Shown one piece after another: positions 1 to 25,130 of a stretch of DNA of 51,148 bases. The notes beneath the pieces are model-generated. The model was not told the origin of the DNA, ran no database searches, and saw only the letters and a list, made by a program, of their open reading frames with translations. Origin of the DNA: Candidatus Nomurabacteria bacterium RIFCSPLOWO2_01_FULL_42_20 (GTDB taxonomy: Bacteria > Patescibacteriota > Minisyncoccia > Phycocordibacterales > CAZVEC01). The stretch covers positions 1-51,148 of the forward strand of contig MFVF01000030.1 of NCBI GenBank assembly GCA_001785965.1, read 5' to 3'. The position numbers and the translations under genes were made by a program. Each line of letters opens with the position of its first letter. Within the stretch, counting starts at the first letter, position 1.

Positions 1-76
1 GTAAAATACGATTTTTGGTATATTCTACTTGTTTGCTTGCCCTTCGTAGCTTTTAAGCGAAGTAGGGCGTGTGTAG

Positions 77-134
77 CCCCGACGTCATTAGAGTCGGGAT
101 CCCGACTTCCGACATTAAGGTCGGAACGTCGGGA
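77..134 (+). repeat. GC-rich self-folding insert 1 in the D-stem of the outer tRNA
   Basis: Closing helix CCCGACGT (78-85) with ACGTCGGG (126-133), enclosing hairpins GTCGGGA/TCCCGAC (93-106) and TCCGAC/GTCGGA (108-113 with 120-125). The 17-mer at 93-109 is identical to 3519-3535. Confidence 0.6.
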
Positions 135-144
135 TTCAGTGGTA

Positions 145-210
145 CCCGCCCGCCAGCCCGACAGAGTCATTCTGGCGGGTACCGAACGTGGTTCGGCACG
201 TTCGGGCGGG
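145..210 (+). repeat. GC-rich self-folding insert 2 in the D-loop/D-stem of the outer tRNA
   Basis: CCCG (145-148) pairs with CGGG (207-210). Internal helices are CCCGCCAG (149-156) with CTGGCGGG (172-179), and CCGAAC (182-187) with GTTCGG (191-196). Confidence 0.55.
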
Positions 211-287
211 GAACGCTGTCCTGATATCGATTACGATATATTTAGTTCGCTCGTTCATAATGAAAATAAAGCCCTAATTTTTTGCGT

Positions 288-359
288 GCGCGTGTAGTTC
301 AGTGGTAGAACGCTGTCCTGATAAGACAGAGGTCGAAGGTCCGATTCCTTCCACGCGCA
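288..359 (+). tRNA. tRNA-Ile, anticodon GAT (320-322), uninterrupted, no encoded CCA
   Basis: Manual cloverleaf: acceptor GCGCGTG/CACGCGC, D arm GTTC-AGTGGTA-GAAC, anticodon arm CTGTC-CTGATAA-GACAG, T arm GAAGG-TCCGATT-CCTTC. The T-loop has C at the normally invariant U55 position. Flanks extend the acceptor helix to 11 bp (284-294 with 352-362). Confidence 0.85.
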
Positions 360-740
360 CGCAGAACGGTAGGCTTTATTTTCATTAGAACTCGCTGCCA
401 AATATAAGACAGAGGTCGAAGGTTCGATTCCTTCCACACGCACAAAATGGAGCAAAGCGGAATTTTGTGCGTGTGGAACAAGCCAATTGCTTGACTTGCG
501 TAAGGAATCGAAAGCCGCAGCCATGTTTTTTCAGCAGAAAAAACAGGCGAGACAGGGTCGTGAAAATTTTAAAGCGACGGCTTTAAAATTATTCCTGACC
601 GATTCCATCCGCCCGCACAAATTAATTGTATTTTATTTTAATCTTGCTTTTTTCCTTGATTTGATGTAATTTACGACAAAGGATGTCAAGCCATAGCTTG
701 ACTTAATTTGTAAACCAAAAAGAAAAAAGGAGGAAAAATC

Positions 741-1868
741 ATGACAAAAAAAATGACCTATGCCGGCGTCGGCGTGAACTACGACGCGATGGATCCGTTC
801 AAACGCGATGCGCAAGCAGTCGCAGCGACAACGGATCACTTTGTCGAGCGTTTTGGTTTCAAGGTCGTACCATGGAGCCGAGGCGAGAGCGTTTTTCTTA
901 TCGAAACGCCTTGGGGGTATCTGGGATTCGTTGTGGAGGGTCTCGGCACTAAGAATATGGTAGCCGATGACCTCTATCGGCTCGGAAAACAGGTGGAATC
1001 GCTCTTTGGTAAATCGTTCTATGATCAAGTAGCGCAATGCAATGTGGCCATGGTGGTCAATGACACGATCACGCTCGGCACACTTCCTGTTTCTCTCGGC
1101 CAGTACCTGGCCGTTGGCGACTCCGGGTGGTTCAGCGACGAGCGGCGCCGCGCTGACCTGATCGAAGGAACGCGGAAGGCCTGTGTTCTGGCACGATGCG
1201 TATGGGGCGGCGGAGAAACACCAACACTCAAAGGCATCATCATGCCTGGAACTTCAGATCTTTCGGGTGCCGCCATGGGATGGCTTGCAAAGAAGGATCG
1301 TGTTTTAGGGCCACATAAAATCCAACACGACGATGCGATCATTCTCATCGAGAGTTCTGGTATCCACGCGAACGGCCTCACGATGGCGCGGAAGATCGCT
1401 GACAAGCTGCCTGACGGCTATCTTACGCGGCTCGACGATGGGCGAACGTACGGAGAGACTCTGCTCGATCCTACGCACATTTACGTTGCACTCGTTGAGG
1501 ATTGCCTCAATCGCGGAGTGAGTATTCACTACGCGGTGAACATCACGGGCCATGGCTGGCGCAAGCTCATGCGGGCGACGCAATCGTTCGCCTACATCAT
1601 CGAGTATCTGCCAAAGCAGCTTCCGATCTTCGACTTTCTGCAGAAGCACGGCCCGGTGGACGATAAGGAAGCATATGGCAACTTCAACATGGGTGCGGGC
1701 TTCGCACTCTATGTTTCGGAAGCCGATGTGGCTACTGTTCTTGAAGTCGCTGCTTCGCACAAACTCGGCGCGCTTCGTGCCGGATACATTGAGCAAAGCA
1801 ACGAGAAGAAAGTCGTCATCCGACCGAAGGGCCTCGAATACTCCGGCTCAACGCTCCGCCTACGTTAA
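741..1868 (+). CDS. PurM/AIR-synthase family protein
   Basis: 375-aa ORF with a strong SD (AAGGAGG) upstream. PurM-like blocks: YAGVGVNYDA, EGLGTKNMVAD, VAMVVNDTITLG, GGETPTLKG, ESSGIHANGLTMARKI, LLDPTHIYV, FNMGAGFALYV. Visibly GC-richer than its neighbours. Confidence 0.7.
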   Translation: MTKKMTYAGVGVNYDAMDPFKRDAQAVAATTDHFVERFGFKVVPWSRGESVFLIETPWGYLGFVVEGLGTKNMVADDLYRLGKQVESLFGKSFYDQVAQCNVAMVVNDTITLGTLPVSLGQYLAVGDSGWFSDERRRADLIEGTRKACVLARCVWGGGETPTLKGIIMPGTSDLSGAAMGWLAKKDRVLGPHKIQHDDAIILIESSGIHANGLTMARKIADKLPDGYLTRLDDGRTYGETLLDPTHIYVALVEDCLNRGVSIHYAVNITGHGWRKLMRATQSFAYIIEYLPKQLPIFDFLQKHGPVDDKEAYGNFNMGAGFALYVSEADVATVLEVAASHKLGALRAGYIEQSNEKKVVIRPKGLEYSGSTLRLR

Positions 1869-1917
1869 AACTTCGGCGGACAAATCGGTGTCCGATGACT
1901 CGCAATTTCAAATTAAT

Positions 1918-1950
1918 GGGTTCTCTGCCAGAAGGCAGTGAACCCTTTTT
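1918..1950 (+). terminator. Rho-independent terminator after the purM-like gene
   Basis: GGGTTCTCTGCC-AGAA-GGCAGTGAACCC followed by TTTTT. Confidence 0.7.
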
Positions 1951-2138
1951 CTTTTTGTAAAAATACTAAAGAATTTGCCGCCATTGGACTTTGTGATTTT
2001 TGTAGTATAATTAAGTAATTAATAGATAATATCCGCCGTCGCTTGCGAAGCTATGGCGAGACAAAGTAAAAATATATGGCAAAAGGAACAGGAATGAGGA
2101 AAGAGGTAAAAAAGCCGAAGAAAAATAAGAAGAAATAG

Positions 2139-3761
2139 ATGACTCAATTAGAGGCACTGAATGTTTTAAAGACTGGCGCCAATGTATTTCTGACCGGCGA
2201 GCCCGGATCGGGGAAGACTTATGTTGTCAATCAATATGTGAAGTATTTGCGCGAACGAAAAATCGAGCCGGCGATTACCGCTTCGACCGGCATTGCCGCC
2301 ACGCACATCGGCGGATATACCATTCACTCTTGGAGCGGGATCGGCATTAAAAATACGCTGACGAAATATGATCTGGATAAAATTGCGCAGAGCGAATATC
2401 TCACTCGCCGGATCCGCAAAGCCAAAGTCTTGATCATTGACGAGATTTCCATGCTCCGCGCCGAGACGCTTTCCATGATTGACGCGGTTTGCCGAGAGGT
2501 GAGGCAATCAAGCGAAGCATTTGGAAATTTGCAAGTAGTTTTAGTCGGCGACTTTTTCCAGTTGCCGCCCATCAATAAGGAGAAACAGGAGAACATTCAA
2601 GTTTCTTTATTGAGTGAAAAGGAAGCTAATTTCGCGTATGAATCAGGAGCCTGGAAAAATATTAAACCGATAACCTGCTATTTGAGCGAACAGCACCGCC
2701 AGGACGACGGCCAATTCTTGGATCTCCTCTGCGCCATTCGGCGCGATACGGTAAATCAAGATCACCTAGATTGTTTGCGGTCGCGTTTTGTCGAAACTGG
2801 TCAGGAAAATATCACCAAGCTTTATTCGCACAATGCCGATGTTGACCGGGTTAATTTGGAAATGTTGGAAAAAATTGGCGAAGAAACGGTTAATTTTGAA
2901 ATGACTTCGGCCGGAGCGCCGGGACTTGTCGCGGGCTTAAAAAAAGGATGCCTCTCGCCGGAGTCGCTTGCGCTCAAAAAACGGGCGGTCGTCATGTGCA
3001 CAAAAAATAATCCGAAGGAGGGTTTTGTAAATGGCACTTTGGGTGTGGTGGCGGATTTTGACGGCTATACTAAATATCCGATTGTGAAAACTTATTCAGG
3101 GCAAACGATTAAAATCTCGCCGATGGATTGGAGCATTGAAGAGCAAGGTAAAATCAAAGCGAAAATCAGCCAAGTTCCGCTTCGGCTGGCCTGGGCGATG
3201 ACGGTTCATAAAAGCCAGGGGATGAGTTTAGATTCGGCGGTGATGGACTTGTCGGGAGTTTTTGAATACGGGCAGGGCTATGTCGCTCTCTCGCGGGTCT
3301 GCCGGCTGTCGGGACTTCATTTGCTTGGTTTGAACGACCGGGCGCTCAAAGTGCATCCGCAAATTTTTGAGCAAGATAATGTTTTTAAAAACGCTTCGGA
3401 GGAGACGCGGAAAACTTTCGGCGAATTGCCGGCCGAAGAAATGAAAAAAATGCACCGCAATTTCATTTCGGCCTTGGGCGGTAAATGGAAGGAAAAGGAA
3501 GTCCCGATGCCCGGAGGGGTCGGGATCCCGACTTCTCCCCAAAAGGAGAATGTCGGGAAAAAACCAAAAAGCAACTATCTGGAAAAAATTCGCGAAAAGC
3601 ACAAAAACGCCTACGCTCGGTGGAGAAAGGAAGAGGAGAAAGATTTAGTCCAAAATTTCAATGAAGGAAAAACAATAAAAGAAATTTCGATTTTACTCGG
3701 CCGAAAAACCGGCGGCATAAGAGCTAGGCTGGTCAAACTTGGCCTGTTGGAAGAAAATTAA
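2139..3761 (+). CDS. Pif1/RecD-family (SF1B) DNA helicase with C-terminal HTH-like tail
   Basis: Walker A GEPGSGKTY, IDEISML, VLVGDFFQLPP, MTVHKSQGMSLD, YVALSRV. C-terminal tail KTIKEISILLGRKTGGIRARLVKLGL. Confidence 0.8.
   Translation: MTQLEALNVLKTGANVFLTGEPGSGKTYVVNQYVKYLRERKIEPAITASTGIAATHIGGYTIHSWSGIGIKNTLTKYDLDKIAQSEYLTRRIRKAKVLIIDEISMLRAETLSMIDAVCREVRQSSEAFGNLQVVLVGDFFQLPPINKEKQENIQVSLLSEKEANFAYESGAWKNIKPITCYLSEQHRQDDGQFLDLLCAIRRDTVNQDHLDCLRSRFVETGQENITKLYSHNADVDRVNLEMLEKIGEETVNFEMTSAGAPGLVAGLKKGCLSPESLALKKRAVVMCTKNNPKEGFVNGTLGVVADFDGYTKYPIVKTYSGQTIKISPMDWSIEEQGKIKAKISQVPLRLAWAMTVHKSQGMSLDSAVMDLSGVFEYGQGYVALSRVCRLSGLHLLGLNDRALKVHPQIFEQDNVFKNASEETRKTFGELPAEEMKKMHRNFISALGGKWKEKEVPMPGGVGIPTSPQKENVGKKPKSNYLEKIREKHKNAYARWRKEEEKDLVQNFNEGKTIKEISILLGRKTGGIRARLVKLGLLEEN
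3498..3535 (+). repeat. GC-rich palindromic element inside the helicase C-terminal linker (in frame)
   Basis: GAAGTC (3498-3503) pairs with GACTTC (3530-3535). It contains GTCGGGATCCCGACTTC (3519-3535), identical to 93-109 in the tRNA insert. Encodes VPMPGGVGIPTS. Confidence 0.55.
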
Positions 3762-3783
3762 AAAGAGATGTATAATAATTAAA

Positions 3784-3819
3784 CAACATTCTCACATTCT
3801 TGAGAATGTGAGAATGTTG
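3784..3819. repeat. 36-bp palindrome (17-bp arms), variant of the CATTCTAACATTCTA family
   Basis: CAACATTCTCACATTCT-tg-AGAATGTGAGAATGTTG, 23 nt after the helicase stop. Related to the palindromes at 21409-21450 and 25101-25130. Confidence 0.8.
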
Positions 3820-3825
3820 CAAAAG

Positions 3826-4230
3826 ATGACCAAGGAAGAATTTGAAAAATTGGTGGCGGCCGCGTCGGAAGAATTACCCGAACGCATTCGGGCTAAGATT
3901 AAAAATGTCGCTTTTCTCACTGAAGATAAAATCCGCCGGCGCAAGAAAGGCGAGCTTGGACTTAAGTTGGGCGAGAGCTTGCTTGGTCTTTATGAAGGTG
4001 TGCCGAGGACGGAGCGCGGTTCCGGATATTTTGGCGTTTTGCCGGACAGGATCACGATTTTCAAAGAGCCGATTGAAGAAATTTGCGCCAGTGATCCGAA
4101 GAAGATTAGACAGCTTGTTTTTGAGGTCGTCTGGCATGAAGTCGGGCATTACTTCGGCTTTGACGAGCCATCTATCCGCAAACTGGAAAAAGAGCGTTTT
4201 TTTTCAAATAAATTCACTCATGATAAATAA
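3826..4230 (+). CDS. Zincin-like metallopeptidase family protein (DUF1025-type)
   Basis: C-terminal WHEVGHYFGFDE (HExxH) with an LYEGVPRTER block. Start chosen at MTKEEF; alternatives at 3814 or 3739 lie inside or upstream of the palindrome. Confidence 0.6.
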   Translation: MTKEEFEKLVAAASEELPERIRAKIKNVAFLTEDKIRRRKKGELGLKLGESLLGLYEGVPRTERGSGYFGVLPDRITIFKEPIEEICASDPKKIRQLVFEVVWHEVGHYFGFDEPSIRKLEKERFFSNKFTHDK

Positions 4231-4280
4231 AATGATAGAATATGGGGGTCGGATTATTATTAGTTAATTTAAATAAAAAA

Positions 4281-4655
4281 ATGTTTTCACAATTACTTGC
4301 GTATAATGATATCGGTTTGTTTTTATTGCGCTTGGCGGTAGCGGTAATTTTTATTTACCACGCTTGGCCAAAATTAAAAAATTCCAAAGGGATGGCGGCC
4401 ATGGTCGGCATGCCCGCGGGCATGATATTTATGCTCGGCGCCGTAGAATTTTTATCATCTGTCGGACTTATTCTAGGTTTATACACCCAGCTGGCCGCGC
4501 TACTTCTAGCGATTGTCATGTTGGGCGCGATCGGTTTTAAAGTAATGAAGTGGAAGGTCTCCTTTAGCGCAACGGATAAAACCGGCTGGGAATTTGATTT
4601 AATATTGCTCGCCGCCAACATTGCCATTTTATTTTCCGGCGGCGGAGTAATATGA
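4281..4655 (+). CDS. DoxX family membrane protein
   Basis: About four TM segments; N-terminus GLFLLRLAVAVIFIYHAWPKL is typical of DoxX. Start taken at MFSQLL. Confidence 0.6.
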   Translation: MFSQLLAYNDIGLFLLRLAVAVIFIYHAWPKLKNSKGMAAMVGMPAGMIFMLGAVEFLSSVGLILGLYTQLAALLLAIVMLGAIGFKVMKWKVSFSATDKTGWEFDLILLAANIAILFSGGGVI

Positions 4656-5531: not shown

Positions 5532-7010
5532 ATGGCAAAAGATGAAACAATTCTTCGATTCGATAAAGTGTCGTTTGAATATGGCCACAATAAACCCATC
5601 CTAGATGAAGTTAGTTTTCCGCTTCGCCGATGTTCGAAGGTAACCATCATGGGTCAAAATGGCGCAGGAAAAAGCACGATGTTTCAGTTGATCACTGGAA
5701 CGTTAAAACCAGAATTAGGCATTATTAATATTATTCCAGGCATTACAACCGCCCTGTCTCGACAAGTTATTTCGCAGGCAGACATGCAACTTACAGTGCG
5801 TGAATTTTTAGAAAAAAGTTTCTTGAAGAAAGTGTACGATATTGACCCCAAGATTGATAAAGTGCTTGAAGTGGTAAATTTAAAAGGTCACGAAAAGCTT
5901 CATGACCGAATTCTGAAAACATTTTCCGGTGGCCAGCAGGCCCGTATATTGCTGGCTTCGGCCCTAATTGCCGAGCCGGATTTACTATTACTTGATGAGC
6001 CAACCAACAATCTCGACGCGGCTGGCATCGCTCATTTAACTAAATTCCTGATTGAATATAAGAAAACAGTCGTGGTAATTTCTCACGACGCGGATTTCCT
6101 TAATGCCTTTAGCGACAGCGTGCTCTATTTAGATATTTACACGCGCAAAGTTGAACAATATGTAGGGAACTATTCCAATGTGCTCAAAGACATTACCGCT
6201 CGGGTTGAAAAAGAAAACAGTAAAAATGCGCGCTTGGCCAAAGCGGCAATAGAGAAGAAAGAAAAAGCGAACTTCTTTGCCATGAAGGGCGGTCGCATGC
6301 GTTTGCTCGCCAAGCGCATGCGAGAAGACGCGGCCGTTATGGAAGAAGAGCAGGTTGATGTACGCAAGGAAGATAAAACAATCAGGTCTTTTACGATTCC
6401 GTGTCAGACTGACCTCGTCGGAGAAATTATTTCGATTACTTCATTTACGACGATGAACTCAAAAACAGGCAAGGTTATAAAACATAAAGCGGAAATTAAA
6501 CTCAAAAAAAATCAGCATTTACTTTTGAAAGGCCCAAATGGCATCGGCAAGAGCGCTTTACTTGAACACCTGGCAAATAATACAGCTCCCGGGGCAAAAA
6601 TTTTAGAAGGCATTCGCGTCGGGTATTATCGTCAGGATTTCTCGACATTAAACTTTGAAGATACTGTCTATGCTTCACTGGCAAGCGCGATGCTTTCAGG
6701 CGGAATACCATTAAATGAAGAGCGCTTACGAGCAACGGCGGCAAGTTTTCTCATCACCGGAGATGTTATCCACACAAAGATCGGATCTCTTTCGGAAGGA
6801 CAAAAGGGTCTTGTTGCTTTTGCGCGTTTGGTGCTTGAACGTCCAGGGCTGCTCATTTTTGATGAACCAACGAATCATATTAACTTTCGCCATATTCCAG
6901 TCATTGCCGAAGCCCTCAATAAATATCAAGGCGCGCTCGTTCTCGTCTCCCATGTCCCCGAATTCATTAAAAAGATCCGCATTGATGAAGTGCTTGATCT
7001 GGAAAAGTAA
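5532..7010 (+). CDS. ABC-F family ATPase (two ABC domains, no TM domain)
   Basis: Walker A motifs GQNGAGKST and GPNGIGKSA. Signatures FSGGQQARI and LSEGQKGLV. Walker B motifs LLLLDEPTN and LLIFDEPTN. Charged linker between the domains. Confidence 0.85.
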   Translation: MAKDETILRFDKVSFEYGHNKPILDEVSFPLRRCSKVTIMGQNGAGKSTMFQLITGTLKPELGIINIIPGITTALSRQVISQADMQLTVREFLEKSFLKKVYDIDPKIDKVLEVVNLKGHEKLHDRILKTFSGGQQARILLASALIAEPDLLLLDEPTNNLDAAGIAHLTKFLIEYKKTVVVISHDADFLNAFSDSVLYLDIYTRKVEQYVGNYSNVLKDITARVEKENSKNARLAKAAIEKKEKANFFAMKGGRMRLLAKRMREDAAVMEEEQVDVRKEDKTIRSFTIPCQTDLVGEIISITSFTTMNSKTGKVIKHKAEIKLKKNQHLLLKGPNGIGKSALLEHLANNTAPGAKILEGIRVGYYRQDFSTLNFEDTVYASLASAMLSGGIPLNEERLRATAASFLITGDVIHTKIGSLSEGQKGLVAFARLVLERPGLLIFDEPTNHINFRHIPVIAEALNKYQGALVLVSHVPEFIKKIRIDEVLDLEK

Positions 7011-7092
7011 AAACTTTTAGTTGTTTTTAGATTGTTTTTGTGATTTAATTATCATTCTGTTATGGATCCCGTAGTAGAATTTTGATTCGATT

Positions 7093-7359
7093 ATGTTCTA
7101 TACCTATGTTTTACAAAGTAAAATGAATAATCAGCTATATATTGGATATACAGCTGATTTAAAACGCAGATTATCAGAACATAATCAAGGGTTAAATTTT
7201 TCTACAAAGAGATACATGCCTTGGCAATTAATTTATTACGAAGCTTCGGTAGAAGAGAGTGACGCCAAACGAAGAGAGAAGTATCTAAAAACAACTCAAG
7301 GTGGTAGATTACTAAAGCGGAGAATAAAGGATTATTTATATAAAAGTCGAAAAATTTAA
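7093..7359 (+). CDS. GIY-YIG nuclease family protein
   Basis: FYTYVLQS...QLYIGYTADLKRRLSEHNQG...E.KRREKYLK. Confidence 0.8.
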   Translation: MFYTYVLQSKMNNQLYIGYTADLKRRLSEHNQGLNFSTKRYMPWQLIYYEASVEESDAKRREKYLKTTQGGRLLKRRIKDYLYKSRKI

Positions 7360-10482: not shown

Positions 10483-10506
10483 CCGTTCCGACCTAGGTCG
10501 GAACGG
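10483..10506. terminator. Hairpin between convergent genes (perfect 11-bp arms)
   Basis: CCGTTCCGACC-ta-GGTCGGAACGG. An A-run lies on the + side, which is a T-run for the minus-strand gene ending at 10509. Confidence 0.7.
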
Positions 10507-14139: not shown

Positions 14140-14244
14140 AAGCCAATAACAATAAAATGCACAATCATGCAGTTTTTTGGTTTGCGCTAAAATAGGAAAT
14201 AAAAAATTTAAGCCGATCCTCAAAAATTATGCTAAAATTGAATC

Positions 14245-15385: not shown

Positions 15386-15823
15386 AGAGAAATTATTAAA
15401 AAAAGATTGAGCTCAAAATGATAAGGGGGACAAAATCTGTCCTCCTTTTTTCTTTAAGCTCTGCCACTGTAGCAAGAACCATTCTTGCTATACCAAAATT
15501 TAAGCCGATCCTCTTTTGGAGAGATCGGCTTGGGTTTAATACTTTTTTATTTATATTGTGATCCGAACAAAAGTTCGGAAAGAACAGTCGAGGGCTTGCG
15601 GTATAACGATGAGTATTACTGACCGCAAGCCGGCAAAAATACATTTCTACAGCATGCATTGCTCTGCTCAAGCCATCGTCTCACCTACAATGACTAGGGA
15701 GTTTTATTCAAGGCCTTGGTTTTTGTAGCTTTCTAGCTACAAAAGTAGTTTTTATCTTGCCAAAGCAAACTCAAGTGCAAGTGTAGCATACCAGTAATTT
15801 TTGTCAAGTCTTTGTATGGTGGG

Positions 15824-21408: not shown

Positions 21409-21450
21409 ATTATTCATTCTAACATTCTATAGAATGTTAGAATGAATAAT
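21409..21450. repeat. Perfect 42-bp palindrome with core CATTCTAACATTCTA|TAGAATGTTAGAATG
   Basis: Arms 21409-21429 and 21430-21450 are exact reverse complements. The 30-bp core is identical to 25101-25130. Confidence 0.9.
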
Positions 21451-21675: not shown

Positions 21676-23355
21676 ATGGAACAAAGTGAAAATAGAATAT
21701 GTCAAAACTGCCAGACTTCATTTGAGATAGACGCTCAAGATTTTGATTTTTATAAAAAGATCAATGTCCCGCCGCCGACATTTTGCCCGGAGTGCCGGTT
21801 TCAAAGAAGAATCATGTTTAGAAACGAGCGAACTCTTTATCGTAATTCTTGCGGTTTATGCGAGAAACAGATTATAACTATCTTTGATCCAGCTGGAGGC
21901 AAAAAAGTTTATTGTGGTAAATGTTGGTGGAGTGATGGTTGGGATGGCAGAGATTATGGACTTGGGTATAATCCCAATATAAACTTTTTCAAACAGCTTC
22001 GTGAACTTGTTAATAAAACTCCGTACCAATATCTTATTGTTGATTATTCAACTCTTGTGAATAGTGAGTATGTAAACCATGCCGGCAGTCTTAAAAATTG
22101 CTACTTAGTTTTTAACGCAGACCTTTGTGAAAATACTTATTACTCATCGGTAGTGGTAAAAGTTAATGATTCTGCCGACTGCACCATGATGAATAACACG
22201 GAACTTGCTTACGGCTGTATCGGCGGAGATGGGTCACAATTATATTTCTCTGAAAATTGCCCCAAATCTGTTAATGTTTGGTATTCGAAAGATTGCGTGG
22301 GCTGTACTAATTGTTTTGGCTGTGTAAATTTACGCAATAAAAGCTACCATATCTTTAACAAGCCGGTCACCAAAGAAGAATTTGAGAAAAATATTTCTGA
22401 AATGAGGCTCGACCTGCACTCGACACATGTTGCACTGAAGCCAAAAATATATGATTTCTGGAACAAATTTCCGCGAAAATATATGTACGGGCGAATGAAT
22501 AATAATGCAACAGGAGATTATATTTATGAATCTAAAAATGCTCTTGATTGCTATCAGGCGGTTTTTGTAGAAGATAGCCGGTATTGCCAATTCGTCACCA
22601 TGCCAACCACCAGGGATTGCTATGATTTTACCGAGTGGGGACATGGTGTGGAGCGCTGTATTGAGACGATAACAACAGGCGAAGGGGCCTATGAAGTCAA
22701 ATATTGTTCAGGAGTTTGGAGTAATACAAAAAACGTAGAGTATTCTATTTATTCGCCGGGGTGCAATAACTGCTTTGGCTGTGTAAATCTAATAAAAAAA
22801 GAATATTGCATCTTAAACAAGCAGTATTCTAAAGAAGAATTTTTCAAGCTCAAAGAAAAAATTATTTCGGATATAAAAACTAGGCCATATGAAGATTCAA
22901 AGGGGCGTAAGTTTAGTTATGGAGAATTTCTTCCTTATGATCTGTCACCGTTTGATTATAATGAATCATTTGCCCAACAATATTTTCCTCTAACAAAGGA
23001 GGAGACTATTAATAAAGGCTGGCGATATCATAATATTAAAAAACCGGATTATACTCCGACACTTACCACCGATCAGATTCCGGACAGTATTAATGATGTT
23101 AAAGACGACTTTTTGAAAGAAATAATTCCGTGCGTTGAATGTGAAAAACCATTTCGTGTTGTAAAGGGCGAACTAGAGCTGCTTAGACGTTTTAAGATAC
23201 ATGTCCCTCGTTCATGCCCGGATTGCCGTCATATGGGCCGACTCAAAAGAATGAATAAACCAAAATTTAACCACCGAAAATGCCAATGGCGATCACTGTC
23301 CGAACAAATTCGAAACCAGTTATTCTCCCGACCGGCCGGAAATAGTATACTGTGA
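21676..23355 (+). CDS. Cys-rich zinc-ribbon repeat protein, paralog 1 (apparent frameshift near 23284; conserved end in the next frame stops at 23383)
   Basis: N-terminal CQNC...FY.K.NVPPPTFCPECRFQRR and CGLC...VYCGKCWW. Two NCFGCVNL(R/I)(N/K)K.Y motifs. C-terminal CVEC...CPDCRH. The final ribbon DHCPNKF...DRPEIVYCEKCYQSEVV is readable only in the next reading frame (shifted by one base). Confidence 0.7.
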   Translation: MEQSENRICQNCQTSFEIDAQDFDFYKKINVPPPTFCPECRFQRRIMFRNERTLYRNSCGLCEKQIITIFDPAGGKKVYCGKCWWSDGWDGRDYGLGYNPNINFFKQLRELVNKTPYQYLIVDYSTLVNSEYVNHAGSLKNCYLVFNADLCENTYYSSVVVKVNDSADCTMMNNTELAYGCIGGDGSQLYFSENCPKSVNVWYSKDCVGCTNCFGCVNLRNKSYHIFNKPVTKEEFEKNISEMRLDLHSTHVALKPKIYDFWNKFPRKYMYGRMNNNATGDYIYESKNALDCYQAVFVEDSRYCQFVTMPTTRDCYDFTEWGHGVERCIETITTGEGAYEVKYCSGVWSNTKNVEYSIYSPGCNNCFGCVNLIKKEYCILNKQYSKEEFFKLKEKIISDIKTRPYEDSKGRKFSYGEFLPYDLSPFDYNESFAQQYFPLTKEETINKGWRYHNIKKPDYTPTLTTDQIPDSINDVKDDFLKEIIPCVECEKPFRVVKGELELLRRFKIHVPRSCPDCRHMGRLKRMNKPKFNHRKCQWRSLSEQIRNQLFSRPAGNSIL

Positions 23356-23415
23356 GAAATGTTATCAGTCGGAAGTGGTGTAAGCGCTTCTCTAATTCGC
23401 ACGAATAGGAGAATA

Positions 23416-25095
23416 ATGGAAAATAAATCGGAAAACAGAATATGTCAGAATTGTAAGACTTCTTTCGTAATTGAGATAGATGATTTTTCATTTTATGAAA
23501 AAATGAATGTGCCGGCACCCGTTTTATGTCCCAATTGCCGTTTCAAACGCCGGGCGATTTGGCGCAATGAAACCACTCTTTACACCGGCCGCAAATGCGC
23601 CAAATGCGGCAAATCAATTGTTTCGATGTATAATCCAAAATCACCTTACACGGTTTATTGTCACGAGTGCTATAATTCCGATTCCTGGGACCCGAGAGAC
23701 TACGCAATGGATTACAACGAATCAAAACCGTTCTTTGAACAATTTGGCGAATTGATTAAAAAAGTTCCTAAGATGACTACTTACATCACCACTGGATTGG
23801 GCCCAAATGTTAATAGTGACTATACTAATACCGCCGGCGGCAATAAGAATTGCTATATGGTTTTTAATAGTGGTTTAAATGAAAATGTTCTGTATTCTCG
23901 CGGCGTTACTTCTTGCAGAGACTCTCTTGATATGTATTTTACAACTGAAATAGAACTCGGCTATGAATTAGTAAATACGCACAAAGCAAGCAAAATAATT
24001 TGGAGCAAGAACAACCCCGCTTGTCTGGACTGCGCTTTTCTTTTAAATTGCAGTGGGTGCACTAATTGCTTCGGCTGTGTAAACTTGCGCAATAAATCTT
24101 ATCATTTCTTCAACCAACCATTGAGTAAAGAGGAATATCAAGACAAGGTTAACAAAATCATGGGAAGCTATAGAGAGATGGAAAAATTCCGGAAAGAATT
24201 TGAGGATTTTTCTCTTCAATTTCCGCGTCGGGAAAATAATAATCTTAAAACCGTCAATTGCGTCGGAGATTATATCACCGAAGGCAAGAATCTTTTTAAC
24301 TGTTTTGAGGTGGCGGAAGCCGAAGATTGCAAAAATATGTTTTCCGCCAAAAAAATAAAAGATTCTTATGATGTTATTGGTCACGGTTATTACAGCGAAC
24401 TTCTTTTAGAGTGTAATGGGACAGGTATTTCAAGTCGGGTTATTGGTTCGTCTAATGTTGAAAATGGTAATAATTTAGAATATTGTTATTTTTTGATGCC
24501 TAACAACAAGTATTGTTTTGGTTGTAATTCTCTGCGAAATGCCGAATATTGTATTTTAAACAAGCAATACACTAAAGAATCCTTCGACAAGCTCAGGACG
24601 AAAATTATTTCGGAATTAAAAGAAAAAAATTTATATGGTCTTTTTATGCCGCCGGAATTATCGCCTTTTGCCTATAACGAAACGGTTGCCCAAGACAACA
24701 TGCCTCTCTCCAAAGAAGAAGCTTTAAAACAAGGCTGGCGCTGGGAAGACAACTTGCAAAAAACCGAAGGCAAAGAAACTCTTAAACCGGAGCAAATTCC
24801 TGATCATATTAAGGATGTGCAAGACGGCATTACCAAAGAGATTTTGGTCTGCATTTCCTGCAACAGGAATTACAAAATTGTGCCGGATGAACTTTTGTTT
24901 TACCGTAAAATGAATTTGCCTTTGCCCCGCAAGTGCTTCAGTTGCCGCCATACCGACCGAATTCGCCGCCGCGGGCCGATGAAATTCTGGACTCGCCATT
25001 GTGCTAAATGCAATAAAATTATTACAACAACTTTTGCTCCCGACCGCCCCGAAATAGTATACTGTGAGAAATGCTATCAGTCAGAAGTTGTTTAA
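23416..25095 (+). CDS. Cys-rich zinc-ribbon repeat protein, paralog 2
   Basis: AGGAG SD upstream. Same architecture as paralog 1: CQNC...CPNCRFKRR, CAKC...VYCHECY, NCFGCVNLRNKSYHFFNQP, CFGCNSLRNAEYCILNKQY, CISC...CFSCRH, CAKC...VYCEKCYQSEVV. Confidence 0.8.
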   Translation: MENKSENRICQNCKTSFVIEIDDFSFYEKMNVPAPVLCPNCRFKRRAIWRNETTLYTGRKCAKCGKSIVSMYNPKSPYTVYCHECYNSDSWDPRDYAMDYNESKPFFEQFGELIKKVPKMTTYITTGLGPNVNSDYTNTAGGNKNCYMVFNSGLNENVLYSRGVTSCRDSLDMYFTTEIELGYELVNTHKASKIIWSKNNPACLDCAFLLNCSGCTNCFGCVNLRNKSYHFFNQPLSKEEYQDKVNKIMGSYREMEKFRKEFEDFSLQFPRRENNNLKTVNCVGDYITEGKNLFNCFEVAEAEDCKNMFSAKKIKDSYDVIGHGYYSELLLECNGTGISSRVIGSSNVENGNNLEYCYFLMPNNKYCFGCNSLRNAEYCILNKQYTKESFDKLRTKIISELKEKNLYGLFMPPELSPFAYNETVAQDNMPLSKEEALKQGWRWEDNLQKTEGKETLKPEQIPDHIKDVQDGITKEILVCISCNRNYKIVPDELLFYRKMNLPLPRKCFSCRHTDRIRRRGPMKFWTRHCAKCNKIITTTFAPDRPEIVYCEKCYQSEVV

Positions 25096-25100
25096 TATAG

Positions 25101-25130
25101 CATTCTAACATTCTATAGAATGTTAGAATG
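25101..25130. repeat. Perfect 30-bp palindrome, identical to the core at 21415-21444
   Basis: CATTCTAACATTCTA|TAGAATGTTAGAATG, beginning 6 nt after the paralog 2 stop. Confidence 0.9.

Follow-up and report, generated by a model that had tools for sequence, protein, structure and literature searches.

A dispersed GC-rich double-hairpin element in tRNA and protein genes of Patescibacteria and other phyla and its association with small GIY-YIG nuclease genes

We analyzed a 51,148-nucleotide (nt) stretch of DNA, here called the window, from Candidatus Nomurabacteria bacterium RIFCSPLOWO2_01_FULL_42_20 (contig MFVF01000030.1), in which an earlier note had pointed to an exact 17-mer shared by an interrupted tRNA gene and a Pif1-like helicase gene. 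Both 17-mers are the invariant core of a double-hairpin element in which one heptamer is present four times in alternating orientation (TCCCGAC ... GTCGGGA|TCCCGAC ... GTCGGGA); its loops are free and often contain another hairpin. The element belongs to a dispersed family that crosses phyla. Its passenger copies in the linkers of proteins stay in frame, and in tRNA genes it is found at one D-stem site, in broken duplicates. Both sites in the window are polymorphic at the strain level, and there is a fixed spatial link between the hairpins, small GIY-YIG genes, and partial tRNA duplications. Taken as a whole, the element is likely to represent a family of small, GC-rich, selfish mobile DNA that is tied to GIY-YIG cassettes targeting tRNA genes.

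Two copies of a double-hairpin element in the window

The 17-mer GTCGGGATCCCGACTTC is present at 93-109 and at 3519-3535, both on the plus strand, as the earlier note had stated. At up to three mismatches, its other matches in the window were its own palindromic reverse readings only. In shuffles, 0.04 matches were expected, and 0 of 100 shuffles attained the observed count. The self-complementarity of 3498-3535 was likewise confirmed, as was the in-frame read-through of this patch, as ...KEVPMPGGVGIPTSPQKENVGKK..., by the helicase open reading frame (ORF) at 2139-3761. The exact 17-nt match held, but it understated the shared stretch, because the real unit is about 57 nt long (77-134 and 3502-3558), with arms and a two-hairpin fold that are common to the two sites. 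The G+C content is about 41% for the window and about 63% for the helicase patch.

The order of parts is shared by both sites. A 5' arm, (C/T)CCCGA(C/T)G, is followed by a short loop and the core, GTCGGGA|TCCCGAC-TTC, after which come a second hairpin and a 3' arm, (C/T)GTCGGGA. The sequence of the second hairpin differs between the copies, yet it pairs in both, as TTCCGAC..GTCGGAA in the tRNA copy and as TTCTCC..GGAGAA in the helicase copy. Copy 1 (77-134, plus strand, 58 nt) lies between positions 10 and 11, in the D-stem, of an outer tRNA-Ile copy. It is composed of CCCCGACG, a loop, the core with the 17-mer at 93-109, the nested hairpin, and CGTCGGGA, and it folds into two tandem hairpins at -35.4 kcal/mol (z of -5.2 versus shuffles). 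Copy 2 (3502-3558, plus strand) is 57 nt, or 19 codons, long and lies in frame within the linker of the PIF1-like helicase, where it is translated as VPMPGGVGIPTSPQKENVG. It reads TCCCGATG, a loop, the core with the 17-mer at 3519-3535, the second hairpin, and TGTCGGGA, and it folds into the same two tandem hairpins at -37.0 kcal/mol (z of -5.1 versus shuffles).

We also weighed whether the shared 17-mer could be a chance match or an assembly artifact. From length alone, we put at about 0.15 the chance that an exact repeat of some 17-mer would turn up in 51 kb of random sequence; in addition, the tRNA copy is near the end of the contig. However, the shuffles did not reproduce the observed count, the arms and fold extend the similarity beyond the 17-mer, and the family exists elsewhere (see below). 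Ten independent assemblies (L001-L010) contain the helicase copy, with the exact protein and the 17-mer in its gene, and three of these (L001, L003, and L006) contain the tRNA copy as well. The agreement of independent assemblies, which come from several samples, shows that the patch is not an assembly artifact. Both chance and artifact are refuted by the shuffles, the extended architecture, the assemblies, and the other loci, and we give this explanation practically no weight.

A dispersed family in several phyla

Genome contigs, one genome per species (596 Gb), were scanned with selection on the exact 17-mer, and at least 119 loci matched. About half of the matches listed come from high-GC genomes and lack flanking arms. 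These armless matches serve as an internal control, and by our estimate about 70 chance matches are expected in 596 Gb. The earlier note had proposed a genome search, and the motif turned out not to be unique to the two sites in the window, as at least 52 further loci have the full arm-core-arm architecture. With the window included, there are at least 54 elements in 53 sources. By taxon labels as deposited, the other loci, at least 52 in number, belong to Patescibacteria lineages (36), Omnitrophota (6), one metagenome-assembled genome (MAG) of Planctomycetia, MAGs labeled Gammaproteobacteria (6), and unclassified sources (3). The carriers among Patescibacteria are Saccharibacteria; Nomura-, Terry-, Kerfeld-, Roizman-, Falkow-, Buchanan-, Ryan-, and Sungii-bacteria; and Paceibacteria, and those among Omnitrophota include the complete genome of Velamenicoccus archaeovorus. 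Several genomes hold two to four copies. Of the 54 elements, 16 are within long ORFs (with L076 as a doubtful case), 10 are in tRNA D-arm contexts, and those outside both are intergenic. This distribution supports the earlier suggestion that a single family of dispersed palindromes inserts into RNA genes as well as protein genes.

The 54 elements range from 32 to 81 nt. Their arms and core are invariant, and their loops vary in length and sequence. The ends form terminal inverted repeats, with 8-nt arms TCCCGACG / CGTCGGGA that are often extended to G...C. Because loop lengths were too variable for a trustworthy MAFFT alignment, we assessed loop self-complementarity by folding each element against shuffles; the second loop was self-complementary in most copies (mean z of -2.7 for the 41 elements with a loop of at least 12 nt). 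Variants with changed yet complementary stems were seen as well, for example, ATCGGGATCCCGAT in L094 and GTCGGGGTCCCGAC, which is a second copy inside the SecA gene of L078. Three subtypes could be distinguished: a 36-nt form with two tetraloops, a form with a GC-rich second hairpin (both window copies), and a form, mostly from Saccharibacteria, with an AT-rich second loop of 22 to 30 nt. On viral contigs, the 17-mer scan gave two matches without arms, which we take as chance, and the two-hairpin array pattern gave none; there was no sign of phage carriage in these contigs. We found no published description of the family, in the candidate phyla radiation (CPR) or elsewhere, although our coverage of the literature was incomplete and this is absence of evidence only.

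Palindromes of this kind might also have arisen independently at each locus, growing from GTCGGGA seeds by hairpin-primed or template-switch repair, repeatedly and without transfer. The heptamer GTCGGGA is over-represented in the window (14 copies versus 3.2 expected, with 8 of the 14 in the first 3.6 kb), the loops often contain a nested CCGAC hairpin, and the orthologous linker of another helicase holds a different palindrome. However, the same 8-nt arms, 17-nt core, and order of parts are present in more than 50 loci of different phyla, which is far beyond what a 7-nt seed would produce, and chance 17-mer matches in other genomes never carry arms. Local origin is, in our judgment, very improbable.

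A DNA uptake sequence was rejected as a candidate, since there are just two full copies in 51 kb. Integron attC sites, the ends of which are RYYYAAC/GTTRRRY, were also rejected: copies of the element lie inside ORFs, and its ends do not fit that pattern.

Copies in protein genes are translated in frame

An element was counted as ORF-embedded when the ORF had at least 180 amino acids (aa) and at least 9 residues on each side of the element. The length was divisible by 3 in all 16 ORF-embedded elements, versus 12 of 38 elsewhere. Without the eight uniform 36-nt copies, the rule still held in 8 of 8, and it held in 7 of 7 when L076, with its tRNA-like context, was also set aside. The hosts assigned by Pfam are unrelated and include FGAM synthase/PurL (L066), leucyl-tRNA synthetase (LeuRS; L070), SecA (L078), and a GH130 phosphorylase (L024). 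In RpoA (L110), the element sits exactly between the N- and C-terminal domains, and in an RNase T-like exonuclease (L019), it sits between the two domains; a further host is a DNA polymerase III delta-like subunit (L040). By direct reading, the core has no stop codon in any frame, and the commonest reading frame gives V-P-T ... V-G-I-P-T ... V-G-K, as it does in the window.

The window's host gene encodes a 540-aa PIF1-family helicase (2139-3761, plus strand; Pfam PF05970 at 2.2e-34). Copy 2 lies between the helicase core, which ends in ...GGKWKE, and a C-terminal helix-turn-helix-like tail (LEKIREKH...). The earlier note had asked whether orthologs conserve the patch. They do not: in an alignment of 32 homologs (59 to 69% identity), the patch is a hypervariable linker and the C-terminal tail is conserved, and the otherwise nearly identical strain L011 has a different sequence there. 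The L011 protein (P0124, in the same 90% cluster) equals the window protein outside residues 451-472, a segment of 22 residues in place of which it has 19 others. In the DNA, two divergent patches are all that separates L011 from the window over 1347-4391. The first is a tract of about 100 nt (3482-3581, with flanking single-nucleotide polymorphisms [SNPs] at 3482, 3579, and 3581), in which the L011 allele lacks 34 nt, including the 17-mer, and has a different 25 nt. The second is a cluster of 8 SNPs at 4049-4176, in a zincin-like gene downstream of the helicase gene, which is consistent with short recombination tracts in the population. The helicase element is thus a strain-variable allele in a short recombination tract and not a conserved part of the protein.

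The same linker holds an unrelated perfect palindrome, CCCACACCAAAAATTTTGGTGTGGG, in an ortholog that is about 66% identical (P0008; L147 1709-1735), where it is translated as HPHTKNFGVG. The interdomain linker of this helicase seems to accept palindromic insertions repeatedly.

Copies in tRNA genes occupy one D-stem site in broken duplicates

All ten elements of the D-arm set have the context ..TAG|CTCAG.., with the element at position 10/11 or 12/13. With the element alone taken out, none of the 10 junctions was spanned by a complete tRNA according to ARAGORN. An intact tRNA was found 21 to 77 nt away in four loci, two from the D-arm set (L012 and L121) and two from outside it (L020 and L021).

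In the window, the tRNA reported by the earlier note is indeed interrupted, but it is not the sole tRNA gene at the locus. An outer tRNA-Ile(GAU) on the plus strand (67-459), in four pieces at 67-76, 135-144, 211-226, and 407-459, carries three inserts and is wrapped around an uninterrupted tRNA-Ile(GAU) at 288-360 (plus strand; ARAGORN, with an Rfam tRNA score of 73.5 bits). The inserts are copy 1 at positions 10/11, a GC hairpin insert (145-210) at 21/22, and a 180-nt insert (227-406) at 37/38 in the anticodon loop, and the inner tRNA lies inside the last of these with inverted repeats on both sides. The joined outer pieces form a perfect canonical 73-nt tRNA-Ile by ARAGORN; removal of the element and the two other inserts restored the tRNA exactly and left no target-site duplication. 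The outer and inner copies form direct repeats, and their acceptor sequences are GCGTGTG and GCGCGTG, respectively. The inner copy is probably the working one. Its T-loop, TCCGATT, has C at position 55, which is normally an invariant U55. Long inverted repeats (GGCTTTATTTTCATTA and its complement) bracket it at 258-281 and 366-389, and a 17-nt inverted repeat (432-448 and 462-478; TTCCACACGCACAAAA / TTTTGTGCGTGTGGAA) pairs the 3' acceptor end of the outer tRNA with downstream sequence.

A close strain, L002, differs at this locus by the presence of a GIY-YIG cassette. There, 363 nt replace window positions 77-287 and contain a three-hairpin array (TCCCGAC-caaa-GTCGGGA, CCCCGAC-atgg-GTCGGGG, and CTCCGAC-accag-GTCGGAG) followed by a 93-aa GIY-YIG ORF, the last codons and TAG stop of which are the first ten nucleotides of the inner tRNA.

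Another insert also recurs at these loci. A GC-rich hairpin insert that starts with CCCGCCCGCC is located in the D-loop at 21/22, right after the element's tRNA segment, in the window (145-210), L022 (2320-2535), and L094 (about 6982-7060). In L022, it is in a Kerfeldbacteria tRNA-Thr and encloses a whole tRNA-Tyr; its first 14 nt, on the reverse strand, are those of the window. The CCCGCCCGCC insert is probably a second element family at these loci.

A small GIY-YIG gene accompanies the hairpins at tRNA genes

We clustered all ORFs that had 70 aa or more and lay 600 nt or less from one of the 54 elements. The sole family recurring in at least four loci was a GIY-YIG protein of about 90 aa, and Pfam PF01541 was assigned to the ORFs of L002, L058, L118, and L094. 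The recurrent layout is a 5' tRNA fragment with the element, the GIY-YIG ORF, and an intact copy of the same tRNA, as seen for tRNA-Asn (L118, where the duplication takes in a promoter-like TTGACA stretch), tRNA-Ala (L058), and tRNA-Arg (L105). The layout is mirrored in L094, which has an intact tRNA-Val, the GIY-YIG ORF, a variant element, and positions 11-76 of tRNA-Val. L116 has a messier cassette layout, and L012 has a duplication with the element and without the ORF.

Since this first sample of cassettes was ascertained on the 17-mer, a second was started from the nuclease and made without reference to the 17-mer. Twenty-five homologs of the L002 GIY-YIG protein, all from CPR-type sources, were placed on contigs. 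Six of 7 distinct loci have an array of two to four hairpins (NCCGAY-N4-RTCGGN) within 130 nt upstream of the GIY-YIG start codon. There are 15 hairpin units in the 910 nt upstream of the starts and 2 in the remaining 16.9 kb, which makes the density 111 times as high upstream. In front of 5 of the 6 arrays is a stretch of 7 to 19 nt that repeats the 5' end of the downstream tRNA gene, which starts at the 3' end of the ORF; in the exception, L141, the fragment before the array differs from the downstream tRNA-Val. The GIY-YIG gene is tRNA adjacent in all 7 of these independently sampled loci. In 4 of the 6 loci with arrays, the last 3' arm, GTCGGAG or ATCGGAG, puts GGAG 10 to 15 nt before the ATG. 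A single-protein GIY-YIG scan of metagenome contigs returned four distant loci, which are without hairpins. The nearest solved relatives of the nuclease are UPF0213 proteins (1zg2, 1.8e-5), followed by the I-TevI catalytic domain and SLX1. The nuclease is a bare catalytic domain, with no DNA-binding domain of the I-TevI or Seg kind.

These data bear on whether the element might instead be a repetitive extragenic palindrome (REP) or a REP doublet forming a hairpin (REPIN), moved on single-stranded hairpins by a Y1 tyrosine transposase of the REP-associated (RAYT) or IS200/IS605-like kind, with the GIY-YIG link reflecting a shared preference for tRNA loci. In favor of this view, the element consists of short GC hairpins joined head to head as a dimer, and its terminal arms read CGTC at the foot (CGTCGGGA). 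It resembles the CGTC-tagged REPs, which are also found within genes and have no known dedicated transposase (PMC3733652), and it leaves no target duplication, as in IS200/IS605 elements. However, among the ORFs within 600 nt of the 54 elements there was no recurrent family besides GIY-YIG, although no Y1-profile search of whole genomes was made. Furthermore, the hairpin arrays have a fixed place relative to GIY-YIG start codons, and the three hallmarks of CGTC REPs (an unpaired tag, a stem that starts with A/T pairs, and a CCA tail) do not hold for the double-hairpin element. We regard mobilization by a Y1 transposase as unlikely.

The hairpins could also be selected RNA or DNA signals, such as processing sites, stabilizers, terminators, or operators of the nuclease mRNA, that are not mobile, with the tRNA inserts being removed from the RNA as introns are. 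The outer tRNA-Ile is perfect without its three inserts, the largest of these is at the canonical 37/38 intron position, and the inner tRNA-Ile has the unusual C55. The GGAG in the last hairpin arm of 4 of the 6 cassette loci would fit an operator, and a solo hairpin at 10483 is terminator-like in lying between convergent genes. The codon-length rule speaks against this account: copies that keep it in unrelated essential proteins are translated passengers and not signals. In the tRNA genes, removal of the element alone gave no complete tRNA in the 10 D-arm cases, an intact tRNA lies 21 to 77 nt away in L012 and L121, and an intact copy of the same tRNA follows in L058, L118, and L105. To our knowledge, bacteria have no bulge-helix-bulge splicing enzyme, and no Rfam family, group I introns included, matches the inserts. 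A purely signaling role is in our view improbable, slightly more so than mobilization by a Y1 transposase.

A known RNA family or group I intron was rejected as a candidate for the inserts. A search of positions 1-3700 at the Rfam gathering score and at E values up to 5 found no family matching either copy of the element or the tRNA inserts, and the inserts are simple hairpins of 58 to 66 nt.

Solo hairpins and other repeats

A solo perfect hairpin, CCGTTCCGAC-CTAG-GTCGGAACGG, with the related TTCCGAC/GTCGGAA stem, lies between convergent ORFs at 10483-10506 and is a solo relative of the nested hairpin of copy 1. Another, GCTCCGAC-ata-GGTCGGAGC, was seen in the same organism at L001 3611-3632, about 470 nt upstream of the start of the window, after a large primase-like gene. 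Together, they suggest that this genome has single CCGAC hairpins dispersed at the ends of genes.

Other repeats were noted. An AT-rich 30-nt perfect palindrome, CATTCTAACATTCTATAGAATGTTAGAATG, is present as two exact copies, with a third at 87% identity just after the helicase stop (3787-3816, 21415-21444, and 25101-25130); it looks like another repeat family or a shared operator or terminator. A 70-nt direct repeat with 86% identity (23314-23383 and 25026-25095) ends in a stop codon, which suggests two paralogous genes with conserved C termini about 1.7 kb apart, each followed by an AT-rich palindrome region. Finally, the exact 18-mer AAAATTTAAGCCGATCCT is present at 14203-14220 and 15495-15512, 1.3 kb apart, and its second copy runs into GCCGATCCTCTTTTGGAGAGATCGGC (15504-15529), a different small hairpin motif.

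Proposed mechanism

We propose that the double hairpin is selfish, non-autonomous mobile DNA that would persist where it does little harm. In protein genes, flexible interdomain linkers would tolerate it, and it would stay in the mRNA as whole codons and be translated. In tRNA genes, the D-stem sequence TAG|CTCAG may be a preferred target, with the element kept in a truncated or broken duplicate beside an intact copy. D-stem insertions would be seen in spare copies only because hits in sole copies would be lethal. The hairpin arrays form the upstream boundary of GIY-YIG cassettes, which would enter tRNA genes and duplicate part of them, leaving one copy whole. Such a site is the window's tRNA-Ile locus, which has a nuclease cassette in one strain and, in the strain analyzed here, hairpin inserts but no nuclease gene. 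The GIY-YIG nuclease, which may recognize extruded hairpins by their structure, might initiate spread by way of double-strand-break repair or gene conversion; the clustered divergence and flanking SNPs around the helicase element would be an indirect sign of such conversion. Within the cassettes, the last hairpin (3' arm GTCGGAG, with its GGAG) may damp translation of the nuclease.

Several observations weigh against this proposal. Neither transposition nor homing was directly observed, and the mode of movement is inferred. The window's own GIY-YIG ORF (7093-7359, plus strand; 88 aa, UPF0213-like by Pfam families and phmmer) has no adjoining hairpins or tRNA, as checked from the CCGAC/GTCGGGA positions, and the solo copies within protein genes are not adjacent to GIY-YIG genes. 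Although the arms and core are the same in both window copies, the loops are not, which means that neither was recently copied from the other. The 51 kb hold just two full copies and one solo hairpin, and copy number per genome may be modest. The polymorphism in the helicase gene is a replacement, of 34 nt by a different 25 nt, and not a clean presence or absence. Short direct repeats beside the copies, as expected of a target-site duplication, were looked for, and none were evident. In a strand test, the stems held both G-U and C-A positions, and these wobble or mismatch positions favored neither strand; selection at the DNA level and at the RNA level are therefore inseparable.

A more specific version of the proposal is tentative, and we hold it as a possibility rather than an expectation. 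Here, the double hairpin would act in cis for mobile cassettes of a class not yet described, present in CPR bacteria, Omnitrophota, and Planctomycetota. In these, a stand-alone GIY-YIG protein of about 90 aa would recognize extruded hairpins by structure and not by means of a DNA-binding domain, enter tRNA genes with partial duplication, and mobilize solo hairpins in trans into the linkers of proteins. If so, they would be the first case of miniature elements that a homing-type nuclease is shown to drive, and they would move between phyla that share groundwater habitats. If the main proposal holds, it would provide, in the arms and core, a sequence marker for DNA exchange among Patescibacteria, Omnitrophota, and Planctomycetota, which have reduced genomes with few recognized transposable elements. 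It would also account for odd annotations in CPR genomes, including interrupted or nested-looking tRNA genes and GC-rich, Pro/Gly-rich patches in conserved proteins, and would tie a small hairpin repeat to a UPF0213-like GIY-YIG enzyme family of unknown function. CGTC-type REPs and Rickettsia palindromic elements (RPEs) have long been without a known mobilizing enzyme, a question that would become directly testable. In addition, the copies would mark sites in essential proteins (SecA, the RpoA linker, LeuRS, PurL, and PIF1) that tolerate 12 to 22 extra residues.

Comparison with known systems

The earlier note had named the RPEs as the closest analogue. RPEs are short palindromic repeats that lie in frame in unrelated and often essential protein genes, are translated, are also found in noncoding DNA, and have no known dedicated transposase; RPE-1 to RPE-8 have been described, of which RPE-4 and RPE-6 are CGTC-tagged REPs (PMC3733652). 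The double-hairpin element is like them in its in-frame, translated palindromic copies in protein genes such as those for SecA, RpoA, LeuRS, PurL, and PIF1. Unlike RPEs, which we compared by description and to which we saw no sequence resemblance, it has a fixed plan of four heptamers in two hairpins, a tRNA D-stem site, and hosts in several phyla rather than one genus. Given hosts among Patescibacteria, Omnitrophota, and Planctomycetia, it is an analogue and not a member of the RPEs. The analogy stands with three changes: the tRNA copy is in a broken duplicate, the family spans several phyla rather than one genome, and a GIY-YIG partner gene, not known for RPEs, recurs beside it.

REPs and REPINs are GC-rich hairpins of 20 to 40 nt, mostly in head-to-head dimers, with conserved stems, free loops, and occasional intragenic copies. 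Their superfamilies are distinguished by an unpaired GTAG or CGTC tag at one end, and CGTC REPs have, besides the tag, an 8- to 9-bp stem starting with A/T pairs, and a CCA-like tail (PMC3733652). The general build of the double-hairpin element is the same, with GC-rich hairpins in head-to-head dimers, conserved stems, and free loops. It differs in that CGTC is paired inside the arm (CGTCGGGA/TCCCGACG), the stem is TCCCGAC, and there is no CCA tail. Furthermore, about a quarter of its copies are in ORFs, whereas REPs are mostly extragenic, and its neighbor gene is GIY-YIG, whereas REPINs flank RAYT genes.

Phage T4 SegB is reported to be encoded by a free-standing GIY-YIG homing gene in a tRNA gene cluster, with presence or absence in close relatives and co-conversion of flanking markers (PMC2330249). 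The cassettes are similar in having a GIY-YIG gene in or beside tRNA genes with strain-level presence or absence, and both kinds of polymorphism can be seen among the window, L002, and L011. They are unlike free-standing homing genes in that the protein is a catalytic domain only, of about 90 aa and nearest to UPF0213, and in the hairpin array and the replacement 5' part of the tRNA.

Transposable elements of the miniature inverted-repeat kind (MITEs), such as Correia/NEMIS of Neisseria, are small repeats that are non-autonomous, have terminal inverted repeats, can be co-transcribed, and are sometimes located inside genes; they derive from insertion sequences and make target-site duplications. 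The double-hairpin element is likewise a small repeat with terminal inverted repeats. In contrast to MITEs, no parent insertion sequence was seen for it, nor were short direct repeats flanking its copies or a transposase ORF at 600 nt or less from any of the 54. Mitochondrial GC clusters, double-hairpin elements, and repetitive hairpin-forming elements of yeast, Allomyces, and sponges invade AT-rich, compact genomes, where they are found in rRNA and protein genes and near mobile endonuclease genes. These, too, are GC-rich hairpin or double-hairpin units, but they have no sequence relation to the element described here, which is bacterial rather than organellar, crosses phyla, and is tied to tRNA gene duplications. 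In its behavior, the double-hairpin element is akin to the RPEs and to intragenic CGTC and GTAG REPs, and its link to the nuclease would be the part most worth testing.

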